A stretch of DNA of 56,822 nt from a virus, in the UHGV virus genome UHGV-0014949; one strand, written 5' to 3'. Both the position numbers and the translations under genes were made by a program. The notes beneath the pieces are model-generated. The model had not been told where the DNA came from and searched no databases. It saw only the letters and a list, made by a program, of their open reading frames with translations. Each line of letters starts with the position of its first letter. Positions within the stretch are counted from its first letter, which is position 1. Positions 2,162-42,400 of the stretch are shown in pieces.

Positions 2162-3099
2162 TATGCAGCGTCCGTTTCTTTCCAGCGTTTGTTATCTGGG
2201 TCGTAGATGATGTTTAGTTGTGACGCGCAATGCTTCATACCACGCCACATATTTTGATATTGAGGATGCTCAACCTGTAGGGCGAGTTCTTCCATAAGGT
2301 TGTTAAAGTCGCTGGCATACTTCGCGTCATTGCAAATCGTTTGCCAGTGAATCCATGCTTGTTCTCGTTCTGCATGTAGTTTTTGCTCAGGGGTGAGCGT
2401 GTTTAAATGTTCTTTGATATGGGTAATCAAGTCGCCTAGATAGGTCGGCTGATTGGTTATGTCTGGAACTTCGATTGTTCCAAGGTTCGCGCAATCTTTG
2501 GTGTGTAGCGCTTCATCCTTGCCAAATTTAAGAACCTTTCGGTTTTTACCGTTTTTGCCCTTCTCAATGCAGAAGTAAGCCATACAGTCAGATAGGCGAT
2601 AAACTTCCTGACGGTTTTTACCGCCTAGATCTGGGCGTTTAATAACTTCATCGCCGTCCTTGTCCTCAACAGCATGGGCCAGAAACACGACATTCTTGCC
2701 GTAGCCAATCATGCGATTCACAAAACCGCCGAAAAGGTTGTTAGCGATACCAAAAGCATTCTGTTTCAGGCCACCGTCAGACTTCACGTTGTACTGGTTA
2801 CTTGCAACATGGTTTTTAATTACATCGAGCAATCGACCAACCGTATCAATAATGATGGTTTCATACGGAACCAGATCAGCTTCTTCCAGTGAACTTACTT
2901 GATGCCAGTATTCAGCCAATTGCACATCTGAACGGCGCAAAGATCCGGCGCGATATACACCAATATCAGCGTCAATAAGAAGGGCATTGGGGCAAGTCAT
3001 TGCCAGGGATGTTTTACCAATTGAAGGATCGCCGTAGACATACAGCTTGATCGCATTGATCTGGATAGATTCAGTTGGTTTAATTACAGATAGAGCCAT
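2161..3099 (-). CDS. Sak4-like / AAA_24 RecA-family ATPase (phage recombination protein)
   Basis: Walker A GDPSIGKTS near the N-terminus, LLIDAD Walker B-like. 312 aa. Adjacent to the exonuclease, as in phage recombination modules. Confidence 0.65.
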   Translation of the reverse strand: MALSVIKPTESIQINAIKLYVYGDPSIGKTSLAMTCPNALLIDADIGVYRAGSLRRSDVQLAEYWHQVSSLEEADLVPYETIIIDTVGRLLDVIKNHVASNQYNVKSDGGLKQNAFGIANNLFGGFVNRMIGYGKNVVFLAHAVEDKDGDEVIKRPDLGGKNRQEVYRLSDCMAYFCIEKGKNGKNRKVLKFGKDEALHTKDCANLGTIEVPDITNQPTYLGDLITHIKEHLNTLTPEQKLHAEREQAWIHWQTICNDAKYASDFNNLMEELALQVEHPQYQNMWRGMKHCASQLNIIYDPDNKRWKETDAA

Positions 3100-3549
3100 G
3101 ATGTTTCCCCTTCTTATTGTTTATCGAATTTAGAGCCAGAACGATCAGCAGCATGAGCTACCGCATGAACATATTGTTCATGGTGTTCTTGTTCATAATC
3201 GTGGACGCGAAGAAGGCCAAGCATGGCAATGGTCGAGAGGACCATAGAAACGAGATATGCAATCACATTGCGGAAAGTGATATACTTCATGAGTTTTGTA
3301 TCCTATGTGTGTGGATCAAACAGAACGTGAAGGCTTGCCGGCCAACCGTTCAAACTAAGTCAGTGTTGCTATGTGCGGCACTGGCTTTTTTATTACCTCC
3401 CAATAATATATAAATTCATTTATAAAATGCAACAGTTTTCTTATATTTATTTATAATTATATTGGTATTTAGAATTTATGCTTATATGGTTTATATGGAA
3501 AACATAAACAAAAATAAAAATATTTTTAAAATAACTTTCATTAAGCCAA

Positions 3550-5925: not shown

Positions 5926-6503
5926 TCAGTCGCATGAAGTTTTTTGATCTGGTTCAAGCATATAGATTGGCTACAGGTATAGACGTAAGCCGTTATGCTG
6001 CAAATACGTCATATCTGGCATTACTACAGAACGAAAAGACGGCGCTGGTCAAGCGTATGGAAAAGGCATTTTGTAAGAACGTGGATAATCAGGACTTGAG
6101 AGCGTTTTTAATTAAAAAGCCTGATGTTGATGTAGTTAGAAAGCGAGATCCAAACAAGCCTAAACGTGTTTTTTCGCAAGTGGATTATCTAGGACAGGAT
6201 ATTTTGCTCGAAGTCTTAGACCCGGATCTAAATTTACCAAACAAAGGGGCCACAACCAGACGCGCTTTTAATGAAGGCAAGTTATACATGGTTATGGACT
6301 GCCCTAATCATGGGATTGCTATGCACCGAACATCTGTAGGAACACCGAAGGATGGAGGGGAACGAAAGCATCACCATTATCAAAAGTATTGCTTGCTTTG
6401 CAAAATTGGCAGACAGGCACACCAAGAACGTGCAGATGACGTGCGTACTTTCTTAAAAAATTATTTAGCGTTCCGTGAGCGCGTTAATCAGTCGGCAAGC
6501 TGA
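5922..6503 (+). CDS. hypothetical protein (193 aa) with Cys/His cluster (CPNHG ... HHHYQKYCLLCK)
   Basis: ORF track. ATGA overlap with the upstream gene. Confidence 0.5.
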   Translation: MISRMKFFDLVQAYRLATGIDVSRYAANTSYLALLQNEKTALVKRMEKAFCKNVDNQDLRAFLIKKPDVDVVRKRDPNKPKRVFSQVDYLGQDILLEVLDPDLNLPNKGATTRRAFNEGKLYMVMDCPNHGIAMHRTSVGTPKDGGERKHHHYQKYCLLCKIGRQAHQERADDVRTFLKNYLAFRERVNQSAS

Positions 6504-6534
6504 TCCACCACACACACCACACAGGAATATCAAA

Positions 6535-7035
6535 ATGACACGTATGACCGCAGCAGAAGCAAAAAAACTGGTTAAGAAATCAAATATCACACTAAGAGCA
6601 AAACTATCCCAATTGGGAAGTATTGGGGAAGAAACGCTGGCACGCCACCTACAGGTAAACCAAATTAAATTTAAGCGTGAGTTTCAATTTAACCCAATGA
6701 CAAAGCACCGGGCAGATTTCTACCTACCTGAATATCACTTGCTGGTCGAAGTAGAAGGTGGAACCAAAGGAAAAAGCCGGCACACAACACATAAGGGTTA
6801 TTCAAACGACCTAGATAAATACAACATGGCCCAGATCCTTGGCTTTTCACGTCTGGCATTCACCACAGAACAAGTAAACCAAGGCGCAGCACTACAGACG
6901 ATTGAAATGTTTATTGTGGCTTTCAATGCGCGTAAAGAGAGTGGATTGGTTCCAGAAGCTATAGAGATTGATAACAGCGTACCTGATGCAATCATGGAAG
7001 CGCAGAAGCACAGACCAGGGTACGGAGTTAATTAA
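6535..7035 (+). CDS. DUF559-like (Vsr/PD-(D/E)xK fold) endonuclease-domain protein
   Basis: RADFYLPEYHLLVEVEGG ... HTTHKGYSNDLDKYNMAQILGFSRLAFT matches the DUF559 signature (DF..p...l.iEvDG..H...D..R...L...G..v.RF). Internal Met chosen as start. The printed sequence and the ORF track frame disagree by 1 nt here. Confidence 0.5.
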   Translation: MTRMTAAEAKKLVKKSNITLRAKLSQLGSIGEETLARHLQVNQIKFKREFQFNPMTKHRADFYLPEYHLLVEVEGGTKGKSRHTTHKGYSNDLDKYNMAQILGFSRLAFTTEQVNQGAALQTIEMFIVAFNARKESGLVPEAIEIDNSVPDAIMEAQKHRPGYGVN

Positions 7036-9414: not shown

Positions 9415-9438
9415 CAGGCCCATATCGGGCCTTTTTTA
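9415..9438 (+). terminator. rho-independent terminator
   Basis: GGCCC-atat-c-GGGCC stem plus TTTTTT. Confidence 0.6.
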
Positions 9439-9595: not shown

Positions 9596-10072
9596 ATGAA
9601 TATAAGTTTTAGGATTTACAAAGTTATGCCGCAATTGATCAAAAAACTAGCAGATATGATGCTAAACAGCCCTTTTGAGGTAGCAGCAATTGAAATGTCA
9701 CCGCAATTTCACCTTAAATTTGTGCATGAATTGCTCCATGATCATGGAGGGAATAAGGATATAGCTTTAGGTATGAACGGTTTATCATTTATGAATTTAC
9801 CGATACTTTTCGTGCATGGCTCAGACGATTATTTCAGGACGATCAACTCGGATCTGCACCGACTTCGGTTAAACCATACCAATTTGCTAGGTATTTATAA
9901 TGAGAAATATACAAGGCTAAAAGTTTTTATAAGTAACGGTTATAAAATAGAAAACTCTAATTCTGCTCAATTTAGCCAGACGGCGGAGCTACAGTCTTTA
10001 GTATATCGCCTAAACCAGATAGAGGGGCAAATGAAAACAATTTCACAAGAAATCTACAAAATTCAAACTTAA
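9596..10072 (+). CDS. moron-type hypothetical protein (158 aa; ATG at 9626 is an alternative start)
   Basis: ORF in an AT-rich block flanked by terminators (9415-9438 upstream, 10094-10131 downstream). Sigma70-like TTGTCA-N17-GATATA upstream. Confidence 0.5.
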   Translation: MNISFRIYKVMPQLIKKLADMMLNSPFEVAAIEMSPQFHLKFVHELLHDHGGNKDIALGMNGLSFMNLPILFVHGSDDYFRTINSDLHRLRLNHTNLLGIYNEKYTRLKVFISNGYKIENSNSAQFSQTAELQSLVYRLNQIEGQMKTISQEIYKIQT

Positions 10073-10131: not shown

Positions 10132-10399
10132 CGATAATAGGAGTGTAGTGAATAATTCAACTACTGAGAGTAATCTCAAGACAAGAGAATACTAATATTA
10201 AATGATCAAATTTTCAAATTAATATGATCGGAAACTTATAAGTAAATATAAATGAATATAAATAATACCCTTGCTTTCTAAATGCCGTTTATATATATTT
10301 CGATCTATTCTGGACATTCTTAACGGCGTTGATCAGTCATCGCTTTTAAGCTGTTTAGTTTAGTTGAATTTTTCAGCGCAAAAAGAACCATTCAACAGG

Positions 10400-10429
10400 A
10401 AACCCGGCCCCCATTAGCCGGGTTTTTTT
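10400..10429 (+). terminator. rho-independent terminator
   Basis: CCCGGC-ccccatta-GCCGGG plus TTTTTTT. Confidence 0.7.
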
Positions 10430-10455: not shown

Positions 10456-11151
10456 ATGCCTACTGATCAAGTCAATAAAGAAAATCCAATCATGCAGTAT
10501 TTCGCATACGCACATTTACCAGCGCCGTTGAAGAACGTGAGCATGGTCCTAGCACATACTGCACAGCTACTTAATGAGCAATTGCCTGATGGACCAGAGA
10601 AGTCTACGGCGTTACGAAAGATGCTTGAAGCGAAGGACTGCTTTGTCCGTTCTGCCATTGGTGCGCCGAATATTGTGAATCCAAGCCGATTAACGGACGG
10701 TTATCACACTTTTCAAGAGCTGTACGTGCATAGAATGGAATTGTTCAAGGTGATATGCCACCAGAATAAATCTCACGCATGGAAATCCAAGCTTCATGAT
10801 GATGGGACCATGTACCCGAATTACTTTATTGTCGGGATTAATACACCAGAAGGCTCTTTCACTTATCACTACAAGATGGAGTTCTGGGATTCATTCAATG
10901 TTGCAGAGCTGGATCGTGCGCCTGAGTGGGATGGACATACATCGGCAGACATTACACGCCTTCACAGCTTAGACGGCCATATCATGCAGGATGCACAGAG
11001 TATTGCTTGGGATCTGGGTCGAGATATTAGCAATGAGATGAATGAAGCCGAGTTCAAAGCACAGTACCAATGCGAACCAAAGAGCGATAAGGCAACTTTT
11101 GACCTGTATGTACCGCTACAAAGCCGTAGCACTGGTGATAGCAATGAATGA
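10456..11151 (+). CDS. hypothetical protein (231 aa), partner of the DUF2829 fusion gene
   Basis: ORF track. Begins just after the terminator at 10400-10429. Contains AHTAQ, YHTFQ and GHTSAD motifs of unclear meaning. Confidence 0.5.
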   Translation: MPTDQVNKENPIMQYFAYAHLPAPLKNVSMVLAHTAQLLNEQLPDGPEKSTALRKMLEAKDCFVRSAIGAPNIVNPSRLTDGYHTFQELYVHRMELFKVICHQNKSHAWKSKLHDDGTMYPNYFIVGINTPEGSFTYHYKMEFWDSFNVAELDRAPEWDGHTSADITRLHSLDGHIMQDAQSIAWDLGRDISNEMNEAEFKAQYQCEPKSDKATFDLYVPLQSRSTGDSNE

Positions 11152-11920
11152 TCCTAAAGCTATCTTCGGAGCATTCAAAGATTTCGCCAAGCATTTAACT
11201 CTTAAGCAGGACATTCCTTTACGCCGTTTTGTGAAAGATATTGATGGAAAGATGACTGATGTAGATGTAGAGGGTGAGCGATTTAATCTACGTGTGGTTC
11301 TACAGGATGATTCGGTACTTAATGTTCAGGGACATTCGCATGATCATGTGATCTATAAGCTGAATCAGGCGATTGAGGATTACGCAGAAAAACAAGGCTG
11401 GATCAAACCAGAGCCAGTTGATGTATTACAGCGTGCAGAAGTTAAAAACTACATCATTGGTACAAGCAAAGACTTTGACTCAAGCGCACAACTTCATTTT
11501 GTGCGTTTAACGCTGCAAGATGGCGCAATTTCATCTGGTATGCACCCAAATCCAATGATTGCAGAAGAAAAAGCAATCACAGCCGCAATCGAATACAGCA
11601 TTAAAAAAGGCTGGATTGAAAAAGTATCGCCGTATTTCTCATTCAGCAAAGCATTAGAGCTGCTTAAGCAAGGTGACAAGATTGCACGTAAAGGCTGGAA
11701 CGGCGCAGATCAGTGGCTTTCTATCTCATGCCTAGATACCAAAGATATTCCTGCAGAAAGCTTTTGGTCGCCACATAACGCAGAATTTGCACGTAAGAAC
11801 GGCGGATCTGCAAAGGTAGCACCATGTATCACGCTTAAAAATGCACAAGGCATGATCATCATGGGGTGGATTCCATCCGCAGGTGATTTATTTGCTGATG
11901 ATTGGATGGTTGCAGAATGA
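11144..11920 (+). CDS. two-domain protein: unknown N-terminal domain plus C-terminal DUF2829 (Tad2-like) domain
   Basis: C-terminus FSKALELLKQGDKIARKGWNGADQWLSI ... GWIPSAGDLFADDWMVAE matches the DUF2829 hallmark (ALkqGkkvaRkGWNG ... DW.v). Start taken at the in-frame ATG 11144, overlapping the upstream stop. Confidence 0.6.
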   Translation: MNDPKAIFGAFKDFAKHLTLKQDIPLRRFVKDIDGKMTDVDVEGERFNLRVVLQDDSVLNVQGHSHDHVIYKLNQAIEDYAEKQGWIKPEPVDVLQRAEVKNYIIGTSKDFDSSAQLHFVRLTLQDGAISSGMHPNPMIAEEKAITAAIEYSIKKGWIEKVSPYFSFSKALELLKQGDKIARKGWNGADQWLSISCLDTKDIPAESFWSPHNAEFARKNGGSAKVAPCITLKNAQGMIIMGWIPSAGDLFADDWMVAE

Positions 11921-12150
11921 AAATGATTATTTCAGCGGCCATTGCAGCAGCTATTACGGGTATCTGGTGGTGCATCATCACCTTTATTGCATTTGCAATT
12001 ACCAAGTCAGGCGGTACAGGTGAATGGATTAATGAGTTTAAGCCTTATGTATTGGCTGTCATCTTCATAATCTGCTTTTTCTCAGTGTGGGTAAATATCG
12101 TTGCAGCTACAGCAACACAAAAGCGAACCCTTCGCAGTCGCTACCGTTAA
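11917..12150 (+). CDS. small membrane protein (2 predicted TM)
   Basis: MKMIISAAIAAAITGIWWCIITFIAFAI ... VLAVIFIICFFSVWVNIVAA. ATGA overlap with the upstream stop. Confidence 0.45.
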   Translation: MKMIISAAIAAAITGIWWCIITFIAFAITKSGGTGEWINEFKPYVLAVIFIICFFSVWVNIVAATATQKRTLRSRYR

Positions 12151-12160
12151 GGAAATAACA

Positions 12161-12622
12161 ATGAATAAATACGTTAAAAACCCAGTTGAAATTACTGCTA
12201 TCCAATACAAATGGAATGATCTACCTGGTCAATCACAAGATGAAGTGCAGGACAATATTGCTGATTTTGTTAATCAGAATATTGAATTACGTGGCGACAG
12301 AGTTCTTTTTTATGGCGCAATTGGCCAAGTTTCAGTTGAACCGGGTGACTGGGTTATTAAACAAAATGACCAAGACTTCTATCCATGTTCGGATGAGGTA
12401 TTTCAGCAGAACTACAAAGCAGCGCCGTCTACCTGGTTAGATCGTGTGAAGTTGGAACAGGAGCGAGTGCAAAAGGATTTATCTGCTTTAGATAAAACCC
12501 TAGATGTTGAACGCAAGCCTGATTTCATTACAGATGAACAATGGATCTTTATGACACGTCAGCAGTTCCACATGCGTCAGTACAACCAGATCTTAAAAGA
12601 TCGTATCGCTAACGCCGTTTAA
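12161..12622 (+). CDS. hypothetical protein (153 aa)
   Basis: ORF track frame. Start set at ATG 12161 (MNKYVKNPVEITAIQYKW) preceded by an AGGAAA ribosome-binding site. Confidence 0.5.
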   Translation: MNKYVKNPVEITAIQYKWNDLPGQSQDEVQDNIADFVNQNIELRGDRVLFYGAIGQVSVEPGDWVIKQNDQDFYPCSDEVFQQNYKAAPSTWLDRVKLEQERVQKDLSALDKTLDVERKPDFITDEQWIFMTRQQFHMRQYNQILKDRIANAV

Positions 12623-24083: not shown

Positions 24084-25763
24084 ATGCGAATCAAGATTAG
24101 TAATTTTCTCAATATGTTCCCACGTATTGATGAGAGAAAGCTCAAAGATACGGCGGCGGCCATTGCGAAAGATGCTGATATTTCAAGCGGTGTGGTCCGT
24201 CCTTTCTATAGCATCGACTTTAAACAGCAGCTCAATGATATGGGGTCAGAAACTAAATCTTTCCATTTTTTTGAGTTCCCGAACATATCCGGTTTTTTTC
24301 AGTTCAAAGATCATATTGATCTTGCATATTCACCAATTGCCGATGATCAATATCGCCGTATCTATTGGTCTGGGGATAGCAGAGATAACGGTCATTTACT
24401 TTATTCTTATACGCCTAAGCTCACACAAGGTACGGTATTTAAGCCAGATCTATGGAGCCGTGTCGGTGTACCAGCACCAACAGTTGCACCGTTGGTTACA
24501 GCCAACACAACAGAATATACAGAGGATGAATTAGCTGATCTAAGTGATGAATCCCGGATATATGTATATACCTACATTACAGAAACCGGAGAGGAATCAG
24601 CGCCAAGTCCGGCCAGCGCAATGGTTCATACGCCACACGATAAGAGTAGTGTAACTCTAGGCTTATTAACAACAGATCCACAGGCCAGCACAGGGCGAAC
24701 GATTACCAAGAAGCGAATTTATAGATCATTGACCACATCGTCCGGCATTGCTGATTTATATTTTGTAGGTGAAATCCAAGCGTCTAGCAGCACTTTTACA
24801 GACACTTTAGATAGTAGCGATATAAATACAGCAGATCCGTTGCCGTCAATCAATTGGGATGAACCAAGAACCGGACTAAGTGGCCTTGGTGTGACACCGA
24901 AAGGCATGAATTATGCCTTTACCGGAAAAATAGTCTGCTTTTCTGAACCGTACTATCCGTATGCTTGGCCGCGTGATTATGAGCTAACCCTACAGCATGA
25001 CGTTGTAGCAATGGGCCACTATGAAAATTACATTCTATGTGCAACCAAGGGAACGCCTTATATCATTTCTGGGATTGATCCAGGCTCAACTAGCATTGAT
25101 GAATTACCGCTAAACGAACCATGTGTATCTAAACGGTCATTGGTGAGTATGGCGAAGTGTGTCTGCTATGCCAGCCCTAACGGTATTGTTATGGCATATG
25201 GCTCCACGGCAAAACTGGTCAGTGATTCATTCTTCGATAAGGACACATGGCAAAGCCTAAAGCCTGAGAGCATCCATGCAATTGAGCATCGCGGCAAGTA
25301 TCTATTTTTCTATGACAACGGCACTAAAAAGGGTGCTTTCTTATTTGATCCATTACAGGTCGATTTCGGTATTGTTGAGTTAGATATGTGGTACAAGGCA
25401 GCCACACGTCAGCACCAGACTGAACAGCTATTTTTCCTAGATGAACAAAACAAAGTTCACGTATTCAATGACACGTCACCACAAAAACGCCCATTTACCT
25501 GGCGTAGCAAATTATTTGATGTATCTGGTGACGGCACACGCATGTTATGCGCCCAAGTCATTGCCAGAGATTACAACAACATCACCTTAAAAGTTTTCAT
25601 GGACGGCGCACTACTACACAGCAAAGAGGTGAAAAGCCGCAGACCTTTCCGCTTGCCTAACCACTCTAAACATTTTGAATGGCAGCTTGAAATCACAGGC
25701 ACATCAGAAGTAAGTGAAATTGTCCTGGCTGAATCAATGTTGGAGTTATCAAAAAATGTCTAA
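24084..25763 (+). CDS. virion structural protein (559 aa; tail hub/adaptor candidate)
   Basis: ORF track. Precedes the giant fibre gene. Confidence 0.45.
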   Translation: MRIKISNFLNMFPRIDERKLKDTAAAIAKDADISSGVVRPFYSIDFKQQLNDMGSETKSFHFFEFPNISGFFQFKDHIDLAYSPIADDQYRRIYWSGDSRDNGHLLYSYTPKLTQGTVFKPDLWSRVGVPAPTVAPLVTANTTEYTEDELADLSDESRIYVYTYITETGEESAPSPASAMVHTPHDKSSVTLGLLTTDPQASTGRTITKKRIYRSLTTSSGIADLYFVGEIQASSSTFTDTLDSSDINTADPLPSINWDEPRTGLSGLGVTPKGMNYAFTGKIVCFSEPYYPYAWPRDYELTLQHDVVAMGHYENYILCATKGTPYIISGIDPGSTSIDELPLNEPCVSKRSLVSMAKCVCYASPNGIVMAYGSTAKLVSDSFFDKDTWQSLKPESIHAIEHRGKYLFFYDNGTKKGAFLFDPLQVDFGIVELDMWYKAATRQHQTEQLFFLDEQNKVHVFNDTSPQKRPFTWRSKLFDVSGDGTRMLCAQVIARDYNNITLKVFMDGALLHSKEVKSRRPFRLPNHSKHFEWQLEITGTSEVSEIVLAESMLELSKNV

Positions 25764-28700
25764 CAAAATCATTAATCAATTGCTAAAAAGCCGGGTTTTA
25801 AGCAAAGCTAGATCAAAAAGTTTAAGTGCAGCCACACCGATTGTTGAAGATCCAACACTACAGACCTGGATCAAAGAAGTATCTAGCACTATCAAAGATG
25901 TGGCTGGATCGAGTGTAAGAAAATCGGATCTGGTTAGAGCTGGTATCGTCACAATTAACAACGGCGAACTACAAAATGCCTTAACACCAAATGAGGAAGT
26001 TAATTTAACCATTCCGGCAGCAGTGGTAAACCTTGCGGCGAATGGCGCTTATAGTTCTATTACTTTGGACTGGGAAACCAAGCCAAGTAAGTATTTTGGG
26101 CAAAATACTATTTATAGATCCGATGTGGATGACTTCGGGACAGCAACACAAATTGGATCAACTTTAGGTGATGTTTACACAGACTATGTGGGGAACCATA
26201 TTAAAGCTTACTACTGGGTAAGAACCATTAGTAAATTTGGTGTAGAGGGGGATTTAGCGCCGTCAGTCTATGCAGAAACGGCCATTGATGTGGCTTATGT
26301 GATGGACCAGATTTCAGGCCAGATTGATAAGTCGCACTTAAATCAGCTTTTACAAAGTGAAATTGGAAAAATTACACAAAATACCAGTGATTTAATTAAT
26401 GAAATTAAAAATAGAGCAGCAGCAGTAGCCAATCTAGCCAATCAATTGCGTCTTGAAGCAGAAGCGCGAGTTAATGATTTGATTGCATATATAGACACTG
26501 AGGTTTTGGAAAAAACCGTAGCAGAAGCCCAAGCACGTGCAGTAGCTATAGCAGAGGAAGCATCTAAGCGCACAACAGAGTTACTAGCCAAGGCGAATGA
26601 GTTAAAAACAGAATTTACCGCTTTGAATGCTCAAAGAATACAAGATATTTTATTATTAAATGATGGGCTAACCAGCGAAGTTACCAGTCGTAAAGCTGGT
26701 GATGCTGCAAATCTTACAGCACTAAATAACTATAAAACATCAAACAATGCAGCACTATCCAATATCAGCGAAACCCTTAGTACCGCAGTTGATACCGGCC
26801 AAGCCACAGCCGAAAAAGTCACAGCTTTAGACACGCGACTAACTACCAATGAACAAGTGAGTTCAACCGCACTGACTAAAGCAGAATCCGCCGTCACATC
26901 AAATAGCGCACTGGCTTCAAAGGTAGACAATCTGGCTGCTATCATCACAGATATTGGAGAAGGTGCTGAAACGAATGTCGATGTTTATGCCTTTAATGCG
27001 TTAAAGGTGGAGGTTAATGCTCAAGGGGACCAGGTTGACACCATCACCAGCGACTTGACTACTTTAACAGGGACAGTATCAAATCTGGGTAACATTACCA
27101 ATGCGACCAATAACGCCGTTGCAGAATTAAAGACACAACAAACTGCTACAGGAACCAAGGTAAACCAGCAAGGGGAAAGTATTACCTTGCTTCAAAACAG
27201 TGTTGCCACTCTTAATGATGATCTAGCTACCAAGGTGGATTCAGAAACCTTTGACAGCCTAACTTCTCAGGTCACGCAAGATAGAGCCAACATCACAGCG
27301 CAAGGCCAGAGCATTACCAATATTCAGAACAACCTAGAAACGACAAACAATAAAATAAATACCAAGGCCGATGCTAGCGCATTGACGGCGACAGATTCAA
27401 AAGTAGCAAATATTGATGATAGAACAACGACTAACACTAATGACACCACTGACTTAAAAGGTCGCATGTCTACAGTTGAGAATGGTTTATCTACCAAAGC
27501 AGATGTGAGCGCACTCAACAACATCTACACGAAAACTCAGTCTGATGCTAAGGCTATTGAGCTGGCAGCAGGTGAAATCAGTAAATACGATGCTACCCTT
27601 ATTACAGGCGGTAAAAACTACGCCATTAAGCTCCAAAATGGTGAAGACTTTAAGCCCTTCTCAGGTTCAGTCGTAACGGTTACACCTAACTTGTCTAGAC
27701 TACTCCTACCTCTTACCTTACCTGTAACAAACCCATTCCGTGTAAAAATCACAGGAGGTACAAGTGTTGTATTAACCGCACCAGTTATTACGTTTATTAA
27801 AGAATCCAGTGTCTTTATTGGATTTAAAGTAAAGAACGAAAGTACTGAGCTTTTACGCTTCGCCTTTAACAACCTATTTGATATTAAATACTTTAAAGGT
27901 TCGGACATAGTAAATCCAGGAGAAGAAAAAGAGATTCTATTGCGGGGTATTACTAGATCTAATGTTAGTGTAGGTCTGCGTGTTCTAAATCCATATAACA
28001 CAAATGGAGGGGCATATACTGAATTATCCTTCCTTATGGCTGAAGTAATGGCTGGTGTAGGCACAATCCCTTCTAATTGGATAGAACCTGTTGAGATAGT
28101 TAAGTCGGCAATTGAAGTAAATGCTACAGCAATCACCACTACCAATGCAGAAGTTGTACGTGTAGATGGTAAAACTACTGTAAATGCTAATGAAATTAAT
28201 GGTTTAACCAGCCGTATGAGCACGGTTGAAGGGCAGGTATCAACTAAAGCGGAAGCCAGTGCTTTACAGAATTACTATACCAAGACTGAGGCTGCAACAA
28301 ACGCGACTACAGTAGCAGCAGGTGAAGTTGCCAAATACGATGCTTCTTTAAAAGTAGGTGGTGAAAACTTATGGTCGCTAGATGAAGCAACTATTGCAAA
28401 AGAAGGTGGTAACGCGGTAATTGAGTATATAGACCGCAATAAAGAGCACTATAAAGTCACTATCTCATCTTTCAGATCAACAGATAACTTGAATTTAATT
28501 CGTCACGACAACATGCTTTTAAGTAAGTCACTCGCTGATGTAGATAAAAATTCACAATACACCCTGTCTTTTGAAATTAGAGCTATAAAAGCTGGAAGAT
28601 GTACGCTTTACGCTTATTTTAACGGAGCCAACACAGTACCGGGTATTGACGTAACAACTGAGTGGCAGCGCTTTGAATTTACGCCAGCTAGTAAACCTGC

Positions 28701-31437
28701 CGGAACTGGTGCGACATTAACAAGTCAGCTATTTGCTTTTGGACTAAACACTATAAATGGGTGGGCTGTAAATGATTGGTACGAAGTACGTCATATTCAG
28801 ATGCAAAAAGGTACTAAGGCCACTGCATTCAGCAAAGCTACCCTTGCGTTGCAAAATGCGTTAGATGCTAACGCTACTGCGATCCAATCTACTAACACCG
28901 AACTAACTAAAGTAGATGGTAAGGTTACTGCAAACAGTAACTCTATTACATCCCTCAATAGTTCTGTATCTAACCTAGAAAACACTAAATTAAACGCTAG
29001 TGTGATAGCAGGTTACTATACAAAATCTGAAACAGATAGCAAGGTAGAAACAGTTACCGCAGGAAGGATTGAAGCATTTAAATCCTCTATTGAGAACTCA
29101 GTAGAGGCTATTAAGATACTTCCACTACAGGCAACTGTAGCTAACATTCTTCGCCCTAATAATCCAGATTTTAACAATATCTCTCTTGTGCAGGATAGTA
29201 CTACCAATGCTTCGCATGTTCTTAAGGTGACTGGTTTAGAGGGTGGAGTAAATATCTTTGCAGCAGAGAATGTACCATTTAACCCTAATAGGCTGTACAG
29301 AGTTAAGTATCGTTTAAAGCGGGTAGCTGGAACAGGTATTGTGTATCCTGCTGTAGTACCTATGAATATGTACAAAACAGGCGGCATTACCTCGAATAAC
29401 ACTGGATTAAATATTAACACTATTAGTTCTGTTATCTACCCATTGGCAGGTACAACTACTGCAATGCCTTTAAACGTGTGGGTAGAGGGTGATTACTACA
29501 TTAAAGGCCAATCTGCTGGGGCATCTACAGGAGCAGGTACTTTAACTAGTCCTCGGACTATGCCTAATTTTGGGGCATATTTAAGACTAGGCTTTATTTG
29601 CCCTATACGTACGGATTTCTTAATTGAATACTTCATTTTAGAAGAAGCTGATGACGACATAACGGCGGATGCGCTCATTACAACCAATGCCGAAGTATCT
29701 CGCATTGACGGCGCATTAACCAGTACAGCGAACAACATAATTTCACTAAGCAGTTCAGTTCAAGGGCTTGAGCAAGATAATTTAGTGTTACCGTTTAAGG
29801 ATAAAACATACAGCGGCGCGGCATATTTACAAGTTAGTTGCCCTCTACGCGATCTATATTACATGCGAACCGGAGAAGTCTATACAGTCCGTGGAAAGGT
29901 GTCTTTTGATCATCCGAATGCCCTTAGCGCAGCGCAGGGATTAGCGATATATCTAGAGGGAGCTATTCGGTTTACCAACGTAGCTTTGTTTAAGCAAGGC
30001 GATAATCAGTATTTTGAGGGTACGATCACAATCCCTGCTATCGTTGATGGTCGCTCTTTCACTAACCTAAACTTCTATTTCTTACCATCAGGTACGGCAG
30101 TAGCTGGTACAAAAACAACAGTTCATTGGGCAGAGCTACGAAAAGGAGATCAGGTTAGCAAAGTTGATCTTTCAGACTACGCCACAGCTAATGCACTAAG
30201 TTCTACTAACACAGAAGTATCTCGAATCAATGGGGTAGTAAATACTCAAGCCACCCAATTAACTTCATTGTCTGCTGGGTTAAGTAGACAAGAGGATGTT
30301 AAATCACTAGCTTACGATTACGAAACGAAAGATGCTGATAGCTGGATTCCTCACTATGGAGGTAGAAGCACCCAGTTTGGAATAGCTTCCGCTGGTGGCG
30401 GTAAGGTAAGCCCAACGTCTTACTATCTCCCTGAAGGCGTGTCCGGTTCGTTTATGTATAACGCAAAGCGACTAACAAATGATAGAAAATACCGTGTATC
30501 TTTTTGGGCGCGAAAATCGAGTACAGCAACGGCGGCTAACTACATTACTGTAGCGAGAGCTTTAAAGAACGGTAATTTTACAGTTTCTTACTACACTTAT
30601 GTAGCTTTCGCACTATCTACGAATGGAGAATGGCAATTCATATCCGTTGATATTGACTTTAGTTTTTCGCAAGAAAGTTACCCTTATTTATATTTAGGGT
30701 TCTCTGTAAATAATGGGAACGCTAATGGCTGGTCTGAGGTTCAGGGATTCCGTATAGATGAAGTCACTATATTGCCTGATATGTCTGAGTATGCCACCGC
30801 CACGGCTGTAAGTTCTCTTACTACTGAGGTTAGTCGGGTTAATGGGGTGGCAACTTCGGCAGCTAATAGCACTACTCTACTCACATCGCGCATGGGAGCC
30901 GCTGAGAATAAGCTACTTGTCCAGGGGAAAGTAACAGACGGCGTTAGATCCAGCTATGTAGTTAAAATGGAAACTGGAAACGTGGTAGGTGGCTTTGGCA
31001 TGGTCCAAGAAACCGGCGCACTAGGCAATGTAATAACAAGTTTTGGTGTCAATGCAGACACCTTTTTTATTGGCTCACCAACTGGTAATAAGAAGCCCTT
31101 CGCCGTCTTAGGCACATCCGGTTTAATTAATGGTGTAACTGTTCCAGCCGGAACTTATATTGATACTGCTTATATCCCAAACGGAACAATCACCAATGCC
31201 AAAATTGGCGATCTTTCCGCAGATAAAATTACAACAGGCAGTATTGCCGCAGATCGCATGAAGGCCAACATTGTGGCAGCCGCACAAGGTCAATTCACAA
31301 CATTAAGCGCATTATCAGCAAAGATCGGAGTATTAAGAACAGCTACTTCTGGGGCTAGAACGGAAATTAAAGACAATTTGATTGAGGTGTACGACAGTAG
31401 CGGCAAATTACGTGTCAGATTGGGCGTATGGAGTTAA
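25756..31437 (+). CDS. tail fibre / host specificity protein (about 1890 aa) with five paralogous modules
   Basis: N-terminal FN3-like segment (AYYWVRTISKFGVEGDLAPSV). Long coiled coil. Five repeats of ..TNAEVSRIDG..T...L.S each followed by a 200-300 aa module. J-like C-terminus (ITNAKIGDLSADKITTGSIAADRM). Start moved to ATG 25756. Confidence 0.7.
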   Translation: MSNKIINQLLKSRVLSKARSKSLSAATPIVEDPTLQTWIKEVSSTIKDVAGSSVRKSDLVRAGIVTINNGELQNALTPNEEVNLTIPAAVVNLAANGAYSSITLDWETKPSKYFGQNTIYRSDVDDFGTATQIGSTLGDVYTDYVGNHIKAYYWVRTISKFGVEGDLAPSVYAETAIDVAYVMDQISGQIDKSHLNQLLQSEIGKITQNTSDLINEIKNRAAAVANLANQLRLEAEARVNDLIAYIDTEVLEKTVAEAQARAVAIAEEASKRTTELLAKANELKTEFTALNAQRIQDILLLNDGLTSEVTSRKAGDAANLTALNNYKTSNNAALSNISETLSTAVDTGQATAEKVTALDTRLTTNEQVSSTALTKAESAVTSNSALASKVDNLAAIITDIGEGAETNVDVYAFNALKVEVNAQGDQVDTITSDLTTLTGTVSNLGNITNATNNAVAELKTQQTATGTKVNQQGESITLLQNSVATLNDDLATKVDSETFDSLTSQVTQDRANITAQGQSITNIQNNLETTNNKINTKADASALTATDSKVANIDDRTTTNTNDTTDLKGRMSTVENGLSTKADVSALNNIYTKTQSDAKAIELAAGEISKYDATLITGGKNYAIKLQNGEDFKPFSGSVVTVTPNLSRLLLPLTLPVTNPFRVKITGGTSVVLTAPVITFIKESSVFIGFKVKNESTELLRFAFNNLFDIKYFKGSDIVNPGEEKEILLRGITRSNVSVGLRVLNPYNTNGGAYTELSFLMAEVMAGVGTIPSNWIEPVEIVKSAIEVNATAITTTNAEVVRVDGKTTVNANEINGLTSRMSTVEGQVSTKAEASALQNYYTKTEAATNATTVAAGEVAKYDASLKVGGENLWSLDEATIAKEGGNAVIEYIDRNKEHYKVTISSFRSTDNLNLIRHDNMLLSKSLADVDKNSQYTLSFEIRAIKAGRCTLYAYFNGANTVPGIDVTTEWQRFEFTPASKPAGTGATLTSQLFAFGLNTINGWAVNDWYEVRHIQMQKGTKATAFSKATLALQNALDANATAIQSTNTELTKVDGKVTANSNSITSLNSSVSNLENTKLNASVIAGYYTKSETDSKVETVTAGRIEAFKSSIENSVEAIKILPLQATVANILRPNNPDFNNISLVQDSTTNASHVLKVTGLEGGVNIFAAENVPFNPNRLYRVKYRLKRVAGTGIVYPAVVPMNMYKTGGITSNNTGLNINTISSVIYPLAGTTTAMPLNVWVEGDYYIKGQSAGASTGAGTLTSPRTMPNFGAYLRLGFICPIRTDFLIEYFILEEADDDITADALITTNAEVSRIDGALTSTANNIISLSSSVQGLEQDNLVLPFKDKTYSGAAYLQVSCPLRDLYYMRTGEVYTVRGKVSFDHPNALSAAQGLAIYLEGAIRFTNVALFKQGDNQYFEGTITIPAIVDGRSFTNLNFYFLPSGTAVAGTKTTVHWAELRKGDQVSKVDLSDYATANALSSTNTEVSRINGVVNTQATQLTSLSAGLSRQEDVKSLAYDYETKDADSWIPHYGGRSTQFGIASAGGGKVSPTSYYLPEGVSGSFMYNAKRLTNDRKYRVSFWARKSSTATAANYITVARALKNGNFTVSYYTYVAFALSTNGEWQFISVDIDFSFSQESYPYLYLGFSVNNGNANGWSEVQGFRIDEVTILPDMSEYATATAVSSLTTEVSRVNGVATSAANSTTLLTSRMGAAENKLLVQGKVTDGVRSSYVVKMETGNVVGGFGMVQETGALGNVITSFGVNADTFFIGSPTGNKKPFAVLGTSGLINGVTVPAGTYIDTAYIPNGTITNAKIGDLSADKITTGSIAADRMKANIVAAAQGQFTTLSALSAKIGVLRTATSGARTEIKDNLIEVYDSSGKLRVRLGVWS

Positions 31438-36331: not shown

Positions 36332-36415
36332 AATAAGAAACACGTTTTAATTTTTTGCCGTTTTTTGGCAACCGCAACAGACAGTAAATCCGATTAACTA
36401 AGAGGTTTTACTGTG
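36332..36415 (+). promoter_or_regulatory. conserved box (AATAAGAAACAC ... TTGGCAACCGCAACAGACA) plus 7-bp-stem hairpin, copy 2
   Basis: Box A 36332-36343, box B 36365-36383. Hairpin CAGTAAA/TTTACTG at 36382-36413 encloses the AAGAGG SD and touches the GTG start at 36413. Confidence 0.45.
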
Positions 36416-39400
36416 AATATTAACCAGCACTTTAGCAATTTAGCAGCAAAGGCAGCAGCAGAAGGCGCAGATGCAAGTCAATTAATCAGTCAGCGTGAAC
36501 GTCTATTCAAAGACAAAGTGATTCCTGAATTAACCAAACGTGGTGCAAATGACACTGCAATTGTTCAGGCGCGTGAAAAATGGTACTCACAGACTGATAA
36601 AGTCATGCAGAGTGCTGGACTATTGCCGAAAGCTGGACAAAATAGCCGCAGCTTTGCCAAGGACAAACGTGCAGACAAGGCCGTTCAAGAAGCCGCAAAG
36701 ACTGGCAGTAAGTTACCGATCATCAAAGAAACCATTAAGTCTACTGGCGAAACTATCGGGAACCTATTTGGACAGGGCGTAGGCAGCACAATTGAAAGTG
36801 CCGCTGGCTTTGTGCGTGATATTGGCGAGAACGAACAGGATTCTATTTCAGCTAAAGTTGCTGATTACGGTAAAAACCTTAGAAAAGAATTTGAAGGTAG
36901 TGCGTCCAGCTTTCAAAAAGATCTGCAAGCTGGGGGAAGTGGTAAAGCAGCCCAATTAGCCACCGGTGCAATTCAATCCGTTCCAGCTATGGCAGCACCA
37001 TTTGGTGTGGCTAAGATTGTTTCTAAGGGTGCTGGCGCACTCAATGCCACCAAAGCAGCAGCCCCTTATCTGGGTATGGGTGCTGGTGTAGTCGCAGGGC
37101 ATACACAGAACTATGGTGAAGTACGCCGCAACGCAACAGAAAACCTTGAGCGTGATTTCCCAAGCTGGGAGAAACTGCAAGGCAATCCGCTATTTGAGCA
37201 AAATTTCCAAGAAAAATTAAACAGCGGTCTAGGCATTAATCAGGCACGCCAGCAAGCCCATGCAGCAACCTTAGACGCACTTTCAGAACAGGCAGCAAAT
37301 AAATACGGTTCAGCCATGACTGCAATCGACTTTATCGCGCCGTCCGGTGCAGTCCTGGGATCGGGGATTCTCAAAAACCAACCTACCAGCCAAATAGGTA
37401 AAAAGCTGGTCGGCGGCGGTGTAGATTCAGCTTTGGTTAAGCGTGAAATGCAACAGGTCCCACGCACCGGCATGGCTAAATTGGTTCCAGATGTAAGTCT
37501 TGCAGCCAACAAAGCAGCGGCCAAAATGGTGGGTAAACAGGCCCTAGAGGAAGGTTTACAGGGCGGTATTGGTGAGTATGGCGCTCAAGCTGCATCGGCC
37601 AATATTGGAGGTACACCGGTAGATTATGGCAAGGTCGGCCAGACTGTTCTTGAGGAAGGCTTAATTGGCGGTATCATGGGCGGCGGTATGCAGTCTGCTA
37701 CTGGCGGATCACCGACCAGCCAAGCCAAGGACGTGGCGAAGCAATTACGCAACCAGACCAACACATTACGCCAGGAGGAAGCCTCAGCACGTAAAGAGCT
37801 GGCAGATGCCATGCAGCTTAACGATCCGGCAGCACTCCAAAGCGCACAAGACAACCTGAATAATATTGGTGCAGAAGCCAGCAAGGTTAAAGCTACTTAT
37901 GATCAGTACGGTATTGATACGCCGTATTTTGTAGAGCGTTTTGCGGCACAGTATCAACCACCAAAACAACACGAACAGGAGCTGCCAGTAGTAGAACCGG
38001 AAGTACAACCGGAGGTGCAGCCAGAAGTACAACCACAACCAACAGAACAACCACAGGCCACGCCAATTAATCAGGGCATGGCAAATACCACAAATCTGGT
38101 GATGGATAGTGTGAGCAATGGATATATCACACCAGAAGAAGCGCAGGTAATCCAGACAGATCCTATTCGAGCTGATGTATTCACTCTAACAATGACCGGT
38201 GATGAAGCGGCAGCGCATAACGTGGTAATGAATGCTGTAACACTGGGGAACATTGATACAAATCAGGCACAAGAGCTGATTCAATCAATTACGCGCTATT
38301 CTCAAGCCAAAGCACCGAAAAAGCCTTCTGTTTCCAGCATTGTGAATAATCATGTTAAACAGCAGATCCATCCACAAGATAAAGGACTGTTTAGCAATCC
38401 AGTTGAATTAGATCCGAAAACCTTTGAACCGATTGATCCTAATCAGCCATCGCCGTTCCAGGAGGATTTTAACGAGCCTAAAGAGTTTTACAATGCAGCC
38501 AAAGCCAATGATTATGTGCGTATTAATGGTCTAACTGATTCACATGACATTGAGATTGCCGATGACGGCACACTTAAAGTTGTTAAAAAACAGGGCATCA
38601 TCCCAGATGATCCGAACCTAAGTAATTTTGGTTATGAACCTGAAAGAATCGTACAGCCAACCCCGGCAGATCCGAATTTATCAAATTTCTCAGAAGGTCT
38701 GGTCAGTGTTGACAGCTTAAATGCTGATAATGTGCCTGATATTATTGACCCAGAAGAAGTTCAGCAGCCAGTACAGCCGATCCCAACAGCGCAGCCAGAC
38801 CACAATAAACCTAAAACTTTCACAAATTATGTGAGAGCAAATGATTTCGTAAAAACAAACGGCCTAAAAGATAGCCATGAAATTATTAATAAGGGGGAAG
38901 GTCAGGTAATTGTTCAGCCTAAATCAGCAGCATCGATTGAGGATTTTGGAAGTGATCAGGCTTTCGATGACATGCTTAACGCCGTTCCACCTACTAGAAC
39001 ACCTGCAAAAAATCCAGTTGAGCCAGTACAGGCCGCAGATCCAGCAACGGACTTTGATAGTGATGAGGCATTTGACGAGTTATTAAATGCTGTGCCGCCA
39101 AGTGGTAAACAAACTGATCCAGCACAACCAACAGCCAGCTTTGCTGATCAGATTCGTGACGCTCACTTAAACAAGCCGAGTGACAAACCAAAACTGATCC
39201 AGGATGAAGTTGCTAAAGGCCGTCCACGTGCGGAAGTCTTAGCAGAAGTTTCAGACGTGGTTAAGGCAATCAGTACGACCACTACACCGGAGCTTAAAAC
39301 TGATACACCGGAGCTTGCACCGGAAGAAAAGCCACTTAGCTTTGAGGAAGAAAAAGAAAAACAAAAGCAAGAATATCTGCAAAAAGTCCGTGATGCTTAT

Positions 39401-42400
39401 GCCAAAGATCCGGCAAGCGTTAAACAGGTAATTGATAAAGAAGTACCTATTATCGGAAACTTTAAAGATAGATTGCTTAACATTGCCGAAGCAACGGGGA
39501 TTGTCGAGAATCTCAAAAAGCAAAACAAACAAGTTGATGAACAAAAAACAGGCGGAAATGGCATTCAGGAAATTGATTCACCGGAAGGTATGAAATCTGG
39601 CGATATTGGCCGAGGATCTGATGGAAAACCCTTTCTAAGCAAGAATGCCGCAAATCGAGGTCTAAAGCTTCGTGATGTGGAAAAAACACATGAAGTTTTT
39701 GAAATTTCGCCGTCTAATTTTGTACTTCGCGCCAAGGAAACAGTACCAGAAGTTGATAAGCCACAAGAATCTGATAATCCCTATCAAAAGTATGATGATT
39801 TAGCCAAACAGTACGGCAGATCTATTAAGTCGGATGGAACTATCGTAGCTCGTAACGGTCAAGATACCGCTTTTAAGATCCAAGAGAAAAATGGACGTTT
39901 ACACATTAAAGATGTTTTAGGAAATCTTGCATTCAGTGGTGCAACAACCCCAGAAAGCCTGAGTAACTTCCTAGAAGATTATTGGTATGACAAAAAACAG
40001 CAAAATAGCCAAAAGGATCAAACCGCTGGGGATAGTGCTGTATTGGAAACACCAGCACCACAGAAGATGAAAAAGGGAGATCTGGGCCGTAAGTCTGATA
40101 ACCAGCCTTTTGCCAGTGCAAGCGCTGCAAAAACCACGATTAAAAAGCAAGGGTTAGATAACTCACATGAAGTTATACAGCTTGCACCATCACAGTTTGT
40201 ATTGCGCCATAAGGATGCTGGCGAACCATTACACAAGGCACTAACGGAAAAATACGGCAATACTGATGTAGTTCGTGATGGTGATAAATTCACAATTAAG
40301 GGAGATCCAGAAGCAACGATTACCATTGAAGGTGACAAGGCTCAATTGTCTATGGATGGTGAAACCCTAAAAGGTGGATATGATGTAACCAATGCAGATA
40401 AAACTGTAGATTATTTTTCTGATTACATTCGATCAGGTAGAAGCCGGAATGCTTTAAAAGCATCACAAAAAATAGCAGAAGAAGCCAAAAAACTAAATGC
40501 GGCAAAACCAAAACCGGAGCCAGAAAACAAGCCTGACACTGGAATTAGCGTAGATGAATTGAAGCGTCTGCAAATGGAAGCAGAAGCACTAATCAACAAA
40601 TCTAAACAAGTTTCAGATCCATTAGAGTTCCCATTAGATAAGGTAAAAGAAGCATACGGCCATGCACATCTTTCACCTGGCAATACAGCAAGATCCTTTA
40701 AAGAATCATTTGATAAGTTTATTCAGGCTGAAATTGATGATGCTCAAGCACTGGCAACTACGGAAGCCCAGCAAACTGCACTTGATGAAGCTATAGACTG
40801 GGTGAAGGATAATTATATCAATGAAGCCTTACCGCCGTTATTAAATGCAGCCAGTGCAACAGTGAGTTCGGCGAGAGCTGGACGCAATAACTTCAATTCT
40901 AAGCAAGCTGATCAGCGTGGATCTGCTCTGGATAAAGCTACTGCCAAATTTGATGCAGAACTGGAACGATTGAAAGGCTATACAAAATTAAAAGTTTTGG
41001 CCGCCAGAACTCCAAAACAGAAACAGGCAGATGCAGAAGCCGAAGCCGAAGCCAAGGCCCAAGCGGCAAAAGATGCAGCAGCACAAGCCAAGGTCGAAGC
41101 CAAGACTAAAGCCGAGGAAGAAGCCAAAGCCAGTAAAAAGCGTGCAAGCAATCAGCATTTAGGTAGTCCAGAAGGCGCAGAGCAGATGACAGCCGCAGAA
41201 TGGCGTGCCAAGCACAAGGACGGAAAATCCGTTATTGATGGTGTGCGATATGTCATGAAGCTGGTGAATGGAGCAACCAGCCTTGTGCCTGTATGGATTA
41301 CAGACGAGAAGGGAACCACATCAAAAGCACCAGCAACAGAAACACCTAACGAAAGCAGCTATGAATCAATCAAGAAACATTTTGATGACACAGTAGAGCG
41401 TATGGATGATGGTGACGAAAGCTTAACACTGGATGAATTAAAAGCAGCTTACAAGGCTTTGATGGATAACCAGGAGAGTTTAGTTTCAGAGCTTTCTAGT
41501 CAAACCAAACAGCAGCTACTTGATAAGATGCACCCCTATTATGCGGCTATGTATAAATCCCACAAAAAGGATGAGCTTGTAAACAAGTGGGTATCTAACA
41601 CCTTTAGAGCTATGGATTTTGCCAGCGGTGGAGTGGTGACTATTTCTTATGGTGATAAACGCACCATGCCTGAAATTGTACGTGACAAAATTGAAGCTGC
41701 AACTCAAGAGGATCTGAACAAGTATTTAGAGGAACAGCGTCAGGCTAAGATCCAGAGAGAAAAGGATCTGGAAGCAGCAGAAGCCGGAATGAATGACCCT
41801 AAGACAATGGATGACTTTAAACGGATCTATGCAAATGGCGATTTCAAGGACTTTAAAGACTTTTACCGAAGCTTAACTATTCCGCAACAAGCATTGTATG
41901 ACGAGTTGAAGTCTGACGCATACAACGAGCAGCGGATGCAGGAAATCGAAAGAAATAAAGCCTATCGAGAAGCCAGCAACCCAAGTCACGCCGTTGAATC
42001 AACCACAGAAGCAACCTTATTTGCCGGGAAACATACCAAAAAAGGGACGGACATTTGGACCGTGGCCCTAAATGGTCGTGTGGATGGTGATGCGTTTAAT
42101 GATTATCGCAGTCAAGCTAAAGGTTTAGGCGGATATTATTCGAGCTACAAGGGCGGCGGTGCAGTACCTGGCTTTATTTTTGACAATGAAGCCACAGCCA
42201 ATGAGTTTCTAAACTTAGTCACTGGGGACCACGAAGCCAAGTCAACCGATCCAGAACCCGAAGCCATTGCAGTTGATCCACAGGCAGAAGTTGAGGTGAT
42301 TGAAACTGATGCAAAACGTCAGGCTGATAAATTGCGTGAAAAGGCTCAAGCCGTCATAGATCGTGGTGAGCAGAACATTAACCGTGACCGTAAAACCAAC

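Follow-up and report, generated by a model that had tools for sequence, protein, structure and literature searches.

The gene island described in this work lies at positions 10456-12622 of the virus genome UHGV-0014949 (56,822 nucleotides (nt), hereafter the window), and its closest described counterparts are the sponge proteins Tad2 and Sequestin, the Acb2/Tad1 hairpin proteins and published fusions of sponge domains. In HgmTad2, the signal glycocyclic ADP-ribose (gcADPR) is held by W21/N22/G23, W87, L88, S90, T92 and D93, and a cyclic-dinucleotide pocket is formed by R31, S47, F70 and N85 within the β2-β5 insertion (Li et al., bioRxiv 10.1101/2023.11.15.567273). The family PF21825 is now named Sequestin, a sponge for 3'-cyclic ADP-ribose (3'cADPR); in SequestinA, E12, Q47 and R61 are required for anti-Thoeris activity and R8A is without effect (10.1101/2025.07.12.664507). 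[quoted passage not shown] Fusions of these sponges have been published and tested, namely Acb4-Tad2 from Pasteurella phage Pm86, Tad2-Sequestin from a Comamonas element and Acb4-Sequestin from phages YH6 and Ab09 (gp59) (10.1101/2025.07.12.664507; 10.64898/2026.06.04.730250), and Hadary et al. removed multi-domain Tad2 proteins with a PF21825 or PDB 6E3C domain from their test set.

An earlier reading of the window (hereafter the original prediction) had singled out two overlapping genes, here open reading frame (ORF) 1 and ORF2, as an accessory anti-defence pair, and both genes were recovered with their overlap (Table 1). We found that they open a four-gene coupled cluster, i.e. ORF1, ORF2, a gene for a 77-amino-acid (aa) protein and ORF3, which heads the late operon of a ~57-kb phage, probably an Acinetobacter phage. 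We consider it probable (roughly 0.6) that the whole island counters immune signalling and that ORF2 functions as a sponge of the Tad2 type. Moreover, the WDGH domain of ORF1 makes a good candidate for a counter-defence family of phages that would be new, because it is recurrently linked to three unrelated Thoeris inhibitors (Tad2, Tad3 and Sequestin).

Tad2-like and Sequestin domains of ORF2 and ORF3

The C-terminal part of ORF2 had been assigned to DUF2829 (Tad2-like) from its motifs, and the profile search bore this assignment out: it matched PF11195 with an E-value of 2.5e-19 and 70 bits (gathering cut-off 25), over positions 2-72 of the 73 in the profile. The predicted structure of this part has the Tad2 fold, and solved Tad2 structures were retrieved, i.e. 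HgmTad2/AcrIIA7 (8kbi; 1.4e-9 by sequence and 10.2 by fold), ModTad2 (9eib; 1.5e-8 and 10.0) and SPO1 Gp34.65 (8sme; 1.1e-7 by sequence, outside the top list by fold), 8kbi and 9eib being 35 % identical to ORF2 along 80-86 residues. The motifs quoted as hallmarks in the original prediction coincide with columns that do not vary in the alignment of the family (R182, W185, N186, G187, W242, S245, D248, D253 and W254). Among them, W185/N186/G187, W242, S245 and D248 are the equivalents of the gcADPR-pocket residues of HgmTad2 and are invariant in 49 relatives; the T92 position is occupied by Gly in ORF2. These features suggest that ORF2 is a Tad2-family sponge for an ADP-ribose signal made by TIR proteins. 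Its C-terminal domain would form the usual Tad2 homotetramer and would sequester 3'cADPR, gcADPR or a relative in the W-N-G / W-x-x-S-x-x-D pocket, whereby the Thoeris effector would stay off.

The β2-β5 insertion of ORF2 is long and of the HgmTad2 class. Three related proteins (P0003, P0006 and P0007) have near-identical N-terminal modules and Tad2 cores and carry three different β2-β5 insertions, which looks like the cassette swapping of a specificity element. In ORF2, this insertion is unlike the cyclic-dinucleotide pocket of HgmTad2, and it may set a second specificity.

Structures of both proteins of the pair were predicted, as had been proposed, and gave a helical hairpin for ORF1 and dsRBD-like modules followed by the Tad2 fold for ORF2. 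The region ahead of DUF2829 in ORF2 had been taken for one uncharacterised domain of ~170 aa. Its place in the protein holds, and its first 165 residues proved to hold a ~65-aa module in duplicate (the halves matched each other in BLASTP at E 7e-5; z 7.6 versus shuffles). In the AlphaFold2 models, a long helix accompanies three strands in each copy; the second shows a clear α-β-β-β-α arrangement (predicted local distance difference test (pLDDT) 73-94), and confidence is low for the first (pLDDT 44-63). The modules are thus modelled with a dsRBD-like α-β-β-β-α fold, with matches of the kinds that Chang et al. list for Acb4, and a profile of 25 modules gave marginal dsRBD matches in the PDB (E 0.004 for TRBP, 0.036 for RNase III and 0.059 for ADAR2). 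Binding of RNA by the modules appears unlikely, because they are mildly acidic (isoelectric point (pI) 5.7-6.1) and lack the lysines of the dsRBD KKxAK motif, acidic residues standing at these positions. They would probably serve as an extra unit for oligomerisation or ligand binding, similar in kind to that from which Acb4 evolved.

When 1.84 billion representative proteins were searched with the module, real matches were limited to two members of this Acinetobacter Tad2 family, and the module appears to be restricted to this phage lineage. Most relatives of ORF2 are 167 aa long and consist of one module and Tad2, the forms of 232-258 aa carrying two modules. Matches of the ORF2 N-terminus to P0182 and P0184 were spurious, these being low-complexity repeat proteins. 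As a separate observation, phage N4 gp49 (L088, 504-986) matched only Tad2-like, at residues 83-159, and its N-terminal 80 residues had no PF13876 match despite the family name 'N4 Gp49'; P0059 and two further relatives also have this type of N-terminus ahead of Tad2. Comparisons made with the N-terminus of N4 gp49 were discarded, as they provide no valid test for Acb4, N4 gp49 showing Tad2-like only in the Pfam copy used.

The anti-defence setting of the original prediction was reinforced by ORF3, which lies two genes downstream of ORF2 and whose C-terminal domain matched PF21825 (E 6.1e-11, 42.5 bits; cut-off 24.8). Residues R95/E99/Q134/R148 of ORF3 are invariant or nearly so, with a spacing identical to that of R8/E12/Q47/R61 in SequestinA, a correspondence inferred from this spacing and from the N-termini that the published primers encode. 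ORF3 would add a Sequestin-type 3'cADPR sponge to the island. Its N-terminal domain is related to SPO1 gp34.82 (tblastn E 2e-4). The idea that this domain might be Acb4, which came from a motif, was rejected since it had no Pfam or PDB match; SPO1 gp34.82, although its nearest named relative, is not the crystallised SPO1 Acb4.

WDGH domain of ORF1 and its recurrent partners

ORF1 had been presented as a protein of unknown fold, which proved incorrect: it carries the Pfam domain WDGH (PF25311; E 1.1e-40, 138 bits; gathering cut-off 27) behind a hairpin of the Acb2/Tad1 type. The WDGH family is large, with 2,748 homologues in a database clustered at 90 % and members in 473 phage genome records, and identity amounts to 55-70 % among phages of Acinetobacter, Bacillus, Listeria and Lactococcus, and also across phages of Firmicutes, Actinobacteria and Proteobacteria. 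About 20 positions vary little or not at all, among them H84, H92, H114, H138, H161, D81, D116, D159, D165, R93 and R168, as well as Lys. This conservation and the invariant His, Asp and Arg look more like those of an enzyme than of a sponge. No relative of WDGH was found among solved structures and no literature was found on this family, which has no described function. Lockin, Acb5, Bes1, Bes2 and RyR-Tad were considered as possible identities of WDGH and were set apart by their published descriptions only.

The hairpin of ORF1 was modelled with a pLDDT of 80 (helices 23-42 and 47-67). Foldseek comparison with viral models (BFVD) retrieved proteins named 'Acb2/Tad1 hairpin domain' with probabilities of 0.96-0.99 and weak E-values, and the profile search reached Acb2 homologue 43 (9ptq) at E 0.58. 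Direct matching to the Pfam family of this hairpin (PF24729) was marginal (two of the 20 members matched, at E 0.14 at best). Decisive was the comparison of profile with profile: an hhalign run of the ORF1 hairpin alignment with a PF24729-type set, made of a seed protein (E 2.2e-22 to PF24729) and ten relatives, gave a probability of 94.3 % and an E-value of 9.8e-8. By these comparisons, the ORF1 hairpin is a distant relative of the Acb2/Tad1 hairpin, below membership at the Pfam level. In L019, the gene of the seed protein lies 34 nt upstream of a WDGH gene that stands alone; the pairing of hairpin and WDGH therefore also exists in the form of separate genes. The C-terminal 60 residues of ORF1 are acidic (pI 4.3), little conserved and modelled with low confidence. 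Hairpins of the ORF1 type also stand alone, as in a 63-aa protein (L091, 2995-3186; Acinetobacter phage YMC11/11/R3177 gp61) that lies in the head-morphogenesis module of A. baumannii phages, and this hairpin type occurs in 353 phage records.

WDGH recurs in single proteins with other domains of the island. The order hairpin-WDGH-linker-Tad2 was found in P0041 (four contigs from several samples) and L011, WDGH-Tad2 in P0103 and L037, WDGH-Tad3 in P0114 and P0145, and WDGH-Sequestin in P0160; in L037, a Sequestin gene is directly followed by the gene for the WDGH-Tad2 fusion. The N-terminal domains of ORF2 and ORF3 are exchanged likewise: the dsRBD-like module precedes hairpin-WDGH in P0097, P0101 and P0104 and Sequestin in L010, and the gp34.82-like domain is combined with Tad2 in P0061 and with WDGH in L080. 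The order WDGH, Tad2, Sequestin and lysis/terminase genes is kept in L001, L005-L011 and L089. The island shows one phage lineage swapping the Tad2 specificity insertion and shuffling N-terminal modules among three anti-signalling proteins.

To survey the neighbourhoods of WDGH, we used 80 IMG/VR loci picked solely for this domain, in which 74 WDGH genes were delimited. A Tad2 domain was fused or directly adjacent to WDGH in seven of the 80 loci, and Tad3, Sequestin, the Acb2/Tad1 hairpin, anti-Pycsar Apyc1 and NADAR were also encountered within two genes of the 74 WDGH genes. Relative to published family sizes, which together make up ~0.1 % of phage proteins, anti-signalling neighbours would be enriched some tens of fold over chance, a rough estimate obtained on loci that are not independent. 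A further independent WDGH-Tad2 neighbourhood was observed in L018 (IMG/VR), where WDGH is fused to a STIV B116-like domain (1894-2538) and a convergent Tad2 gene lies directly downstream (2856-3329).

Sequestin was itself discovered through its fusion to Tad2 and Acb4, and the same reasoning picks out WDGH here. ORF1 would be a second, independent anti-signalling protein co-produced with the sponge; that ORF1, through WDGH, is itself anti-signalling is possible, the odds being somewhat below even. As a tentative proposal, with the odds against it, WDGH would be a new widespread inhibitor family of TIR- or cGAS-type signalling, either a sponge or a signal-degrading enzyme, and one interchangeable anti-signalling set would also include the gp34.82-like domain and the dsRBD-like module. 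Were this true, the domains fused to Tad2, Tad3 and Sequestin would indicate no fewer than three counter-defence families that have escaped recognition. Should WDGH interfere with immune signalling, the known counter-defence proteins would gain a large family, which could bring a new mechanism to light, given how enzyme-like its degree of conservation and the invariant His, Asp and Arg look.

Alternative readings

Several observations weigh against an anti-signalling island. Regarding ORF2, conservation of the pocket is only an indication of activity, and the residues R31/S47/F70/N85 of HgmTad2 are not kept, S, W (or I), V and M being aligned with them in an alignment that is uncertain within the insertion. 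Neither residues 1-164 of ORF2 nor any of the 25 module sequences matched PF13876 (Acb4) at E <= 10, the Acb4 structure 9e4w was not retrieved at E <= 10 when the PDB was searched with the module profile, and the modules had no Pfam family match. Residues 1-90 of ORF3 had no match in Pfam and none in the PDB, either as a single sequence or as a profile. Concerning WDGH, an identity of 55-70 % across phyla is judged unusual for a sponge, ~85 % of the WDGH loci have no recognised anti-signalling neighbour, and many WDGH genes adjoin dUTPase, ThyA or dCTP deaminase-like genes. Finally, since the island is placed behind a terminator, its expression would be late and dependent on antitermination, an unusual situation for genes of counter-defence.

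For ORF1, the chief competing reading is an unrelated enzyme of nucleotide metabolism. WDGH proteins would then be nucleotide-metabolism or other housekeeping phage enzymes sharing a permissive accessory slot with sponges, and the Tad fusions would reflect promiscuous shuffling of small-protein domains. Such a role would account for neighbours such as dUTPase (4), thymidylate synthase, dCTP deaminase-like proteins, a single-stranded-DNA-binding protein and RinB. The high identity across phages of three phyla suits an enzyme with a universal substrate; the invariant residues, with five His and four Asp among them, and the fusions of WDGH to unrelated domains (STIV B116-like, DUF551) also speak for it. 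It is harder to reconcile with the independent fusions to Tad2, Tad3 and Sequestin, which involve different linkers and different lineages, with the Acb2/Tad1-hairpin and Apyc1 genes that adjoin WDGH in distant phages, and with anti-signalling neighbours estimated, roughly, to be tens of times commoner than chance. We regard this enzyme role as rather unlikely.

As for ORF2, its modules could be a divergent, duplicated Acb4-type sponge, in which case ORF2 would be an ordinary Acb4-Tad2 fusion blocking both Thoeris and, through cyclic dinucleotides, the cyclic-oligonucleotide-based anti-phage signalling system (CBASS). Tad2 is often fused to Acb4, and the Acb4-Tad2 protein of Pm86 cancels type I Thoeris and type I CBASS (10.1101/2025.07.12.664507); besides, sister proteins with a near-identical Tad2 domain bear other N-terminal domains at the position of the ORF2 modules. 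Against this stand the missing PF13876 matches, a module profile that matches canonical dsRBDs of the PDB and not Acb4, and the limitation of the module to the Acinetobacter lineage. The modules appear to share the fold class of Acb4 but are not Acb4 members as judged by sequence, and we hold a plain Acb4-Tad2 fusion to be improbable.

Very improbable is an action of the ORF2 DUF2829 domain outside Thoeris, as an AcrIIA7-like anti-CRISPR or as a housekeeping cyclic di-GMP (c-di-GMP) sponge altering host physiology: the PDB entry that ORF2 matches best by sequence bears the name AcrIIA7, 'Inhibitor of Type II CRISPR-Cas system', HgmTad2 binds c-di-GMP at pM affinity (bioRxiv 10.1101/2023.11.15.567273) and Tad2 homologues block Pycsar and type IV Thoeris too, but Cas9 inhibition was not reproduced by Li et al. 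(bioRxiv 10.1101/2023.11.15.567273), the c-di-GMP pocket residues of HgmTad2 are replaced in ORF2 and the neighbouring Sequestin gene points to 3'cADPR.

Gene layout and comparison with described systems

The genes of the island are tightly coupled, with overlaps of 8 nt between ORF1 and ORF2 (at ATGAATGA) and of 4 nt between the ORF2 stop and the start of the 77-aa gene (11917), and a gap of 10 nt before ORF3, whose start is preceded by an AAGGAA ribosome-binding site. For ORF2, the longest frame starts at 11042 and the metagenome gene caller picked 11108; the start at 11144 is better supported, because a GGTGA Shine-Dalgarno motif lies 5-6 nt upstream and the close homologues all begin with MND.

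Table 1 Features of the island and of other parts of the window
Feature	Position	Strand	Description
ORF1	10456-11151	+	231 aa; hairpin ~10-70, WDGH 79-171, acidic tail 172-231
ORF2	11144-11920	+	258 aa; dsRBD-like modules ~28-85 and ~94-155, Tad2-like/DUF2829 166-256
77-aa protein	11917-12150	+	basic, pI 10.0; two hydrophobic (putative membrane-spanning) stretches, judged by eye
ORF3	12161-12622	+	153 aa; beta-rich N-domain 1-90 (SPO1 gp34.82-related), Sequestin 91-150
Strong intrinsic terminator	10397-10428 (to 10435 with tail)	+	12-bp stem, U7; ΔG -17.7 kcal/mol, z -3.3 (RNA fold)
Strong terminator	9416-9432		upstream of the ORF1/ORF2 pair
158-aa ORF	9596-10072	+	low GC content (0.35); alone between the two terminators
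186-aa ORF	6475-7035	+	weak DUF559 match (Vsr-like endonuclease fold), E 8.4e-5
1,907-aa ORF	25714-31437	+	structural region
3,836-aa ORF	36413-47923	+	structural region

The original prediction had placed the pair between two strong terminators. Both of these lie upstream, no terminator-like structure was found 3' of ORF2 in the sequence and RNA fold check, and the coupled operon continues there. The proximal terminator ends ~20 nt before the start of ORF1; therefore, a promoter after it has no room. The island would be transcribed by read-through of this terminator, as the first genes of a lambdoid late operon. Downstream of ORF3 come two holin-like membrane proteins (without family match), a CHAP endolysin and the terminase, which a P22-type portal follows in related contigs. 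The gene of the 77-aa protein was also called in L089 and is not present in the related islands L001 and L007; lying between the Tad2 and Sequestin genes, it looks like a lineage-specific insertion.

Relatives were found in records of Acinetobacter lwoffii and A. johnsonii, and the window had no close DNA relatives among 50,697 phage records. The island-bearing contigs L005, L006 and L089 measure 58,533, 57,089 and 56,877 bp; they are of whole-phage size like the window, two of them lie within A. lwoffii assemblies, and they may be complete or extrachromosomal phage genomes. A role as defence system was rejected, since the eight genes tested gave no PADLOC match and no NCBIfam name. Elsewhere in the window, the 158-aa ORF matches phrog_21049 (unknown function), without Pfam, NCBIfam or PADLOC match, and looks like a separate accessory gene (moron); the 3,836-aa and 1,907-aa ORFs, both very long, are possibly a tail/host-recognition protein and a tape measure.

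Compared with described Tad2 proteins (SPO1 Gp34.65, HgmTad2/AcrIIA7, ModTad2), ORF2 has the same domain by Pfam, PDB sequence and fold, the same gcADPR-pocket residues and an insertion of the HgmTad2 class, but it differs by 165 additional N-terminal residues forming two dsRBD-like modules and by the replacement of the cyclic-dinucleotide residues of HgmTad2. Likewise, ORF3 resembles Sequestin (PF21825; T4 Y16O, SequestinA/B) in its profile match and in four pocket residues at the same spacing, its Sequestin domain being fused to an N-terminal domain without named family. ORF1 shares with Acb2/Tad1 (PF24729) a two-helix hairpin and the pattern F-x-Y-x-H..P ... P-x-x-x-E-K-S-x-x-L..L-E-A, whereas the near-invariant Arg of the Acb2-type alignment is aligned with an invariant Ser in ORF1, and the ORF1 hairpin precedes WDGH and has neither the third helix of Acb2 nor the preceding β-domain of Tad1.

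In the original prediction, a sponge with a fused or extended architecture was held to be new. In view of the published fusions and anti-signalling hotspots, a fused Tad2 is not new in kind: as in those fused sponges, a sponge and a second small domain share one polypeptide and several anti-signalling genes lie in one hotspot, and Ab09 gp59 has the same size and layout as ORF3, i.e. an N-terminal domain of ~85 aa and a Sequestin domain of ~63 aa. The partners found in the island are different, none being recognisable as Acb4. What is new are these specific partners (a duplicated dsRBD-like module joined to Tad2, and a gp34.82-like domain joined to Sequestin), the repeated association of WDGH with three Thoeris inhibitors that are unrelated to one another, and the position of the island, which, in contrast with the N4-like hotspot, heads the late operon of a phage whose portal is of the P22 type and whose terminase is of the T4 type.

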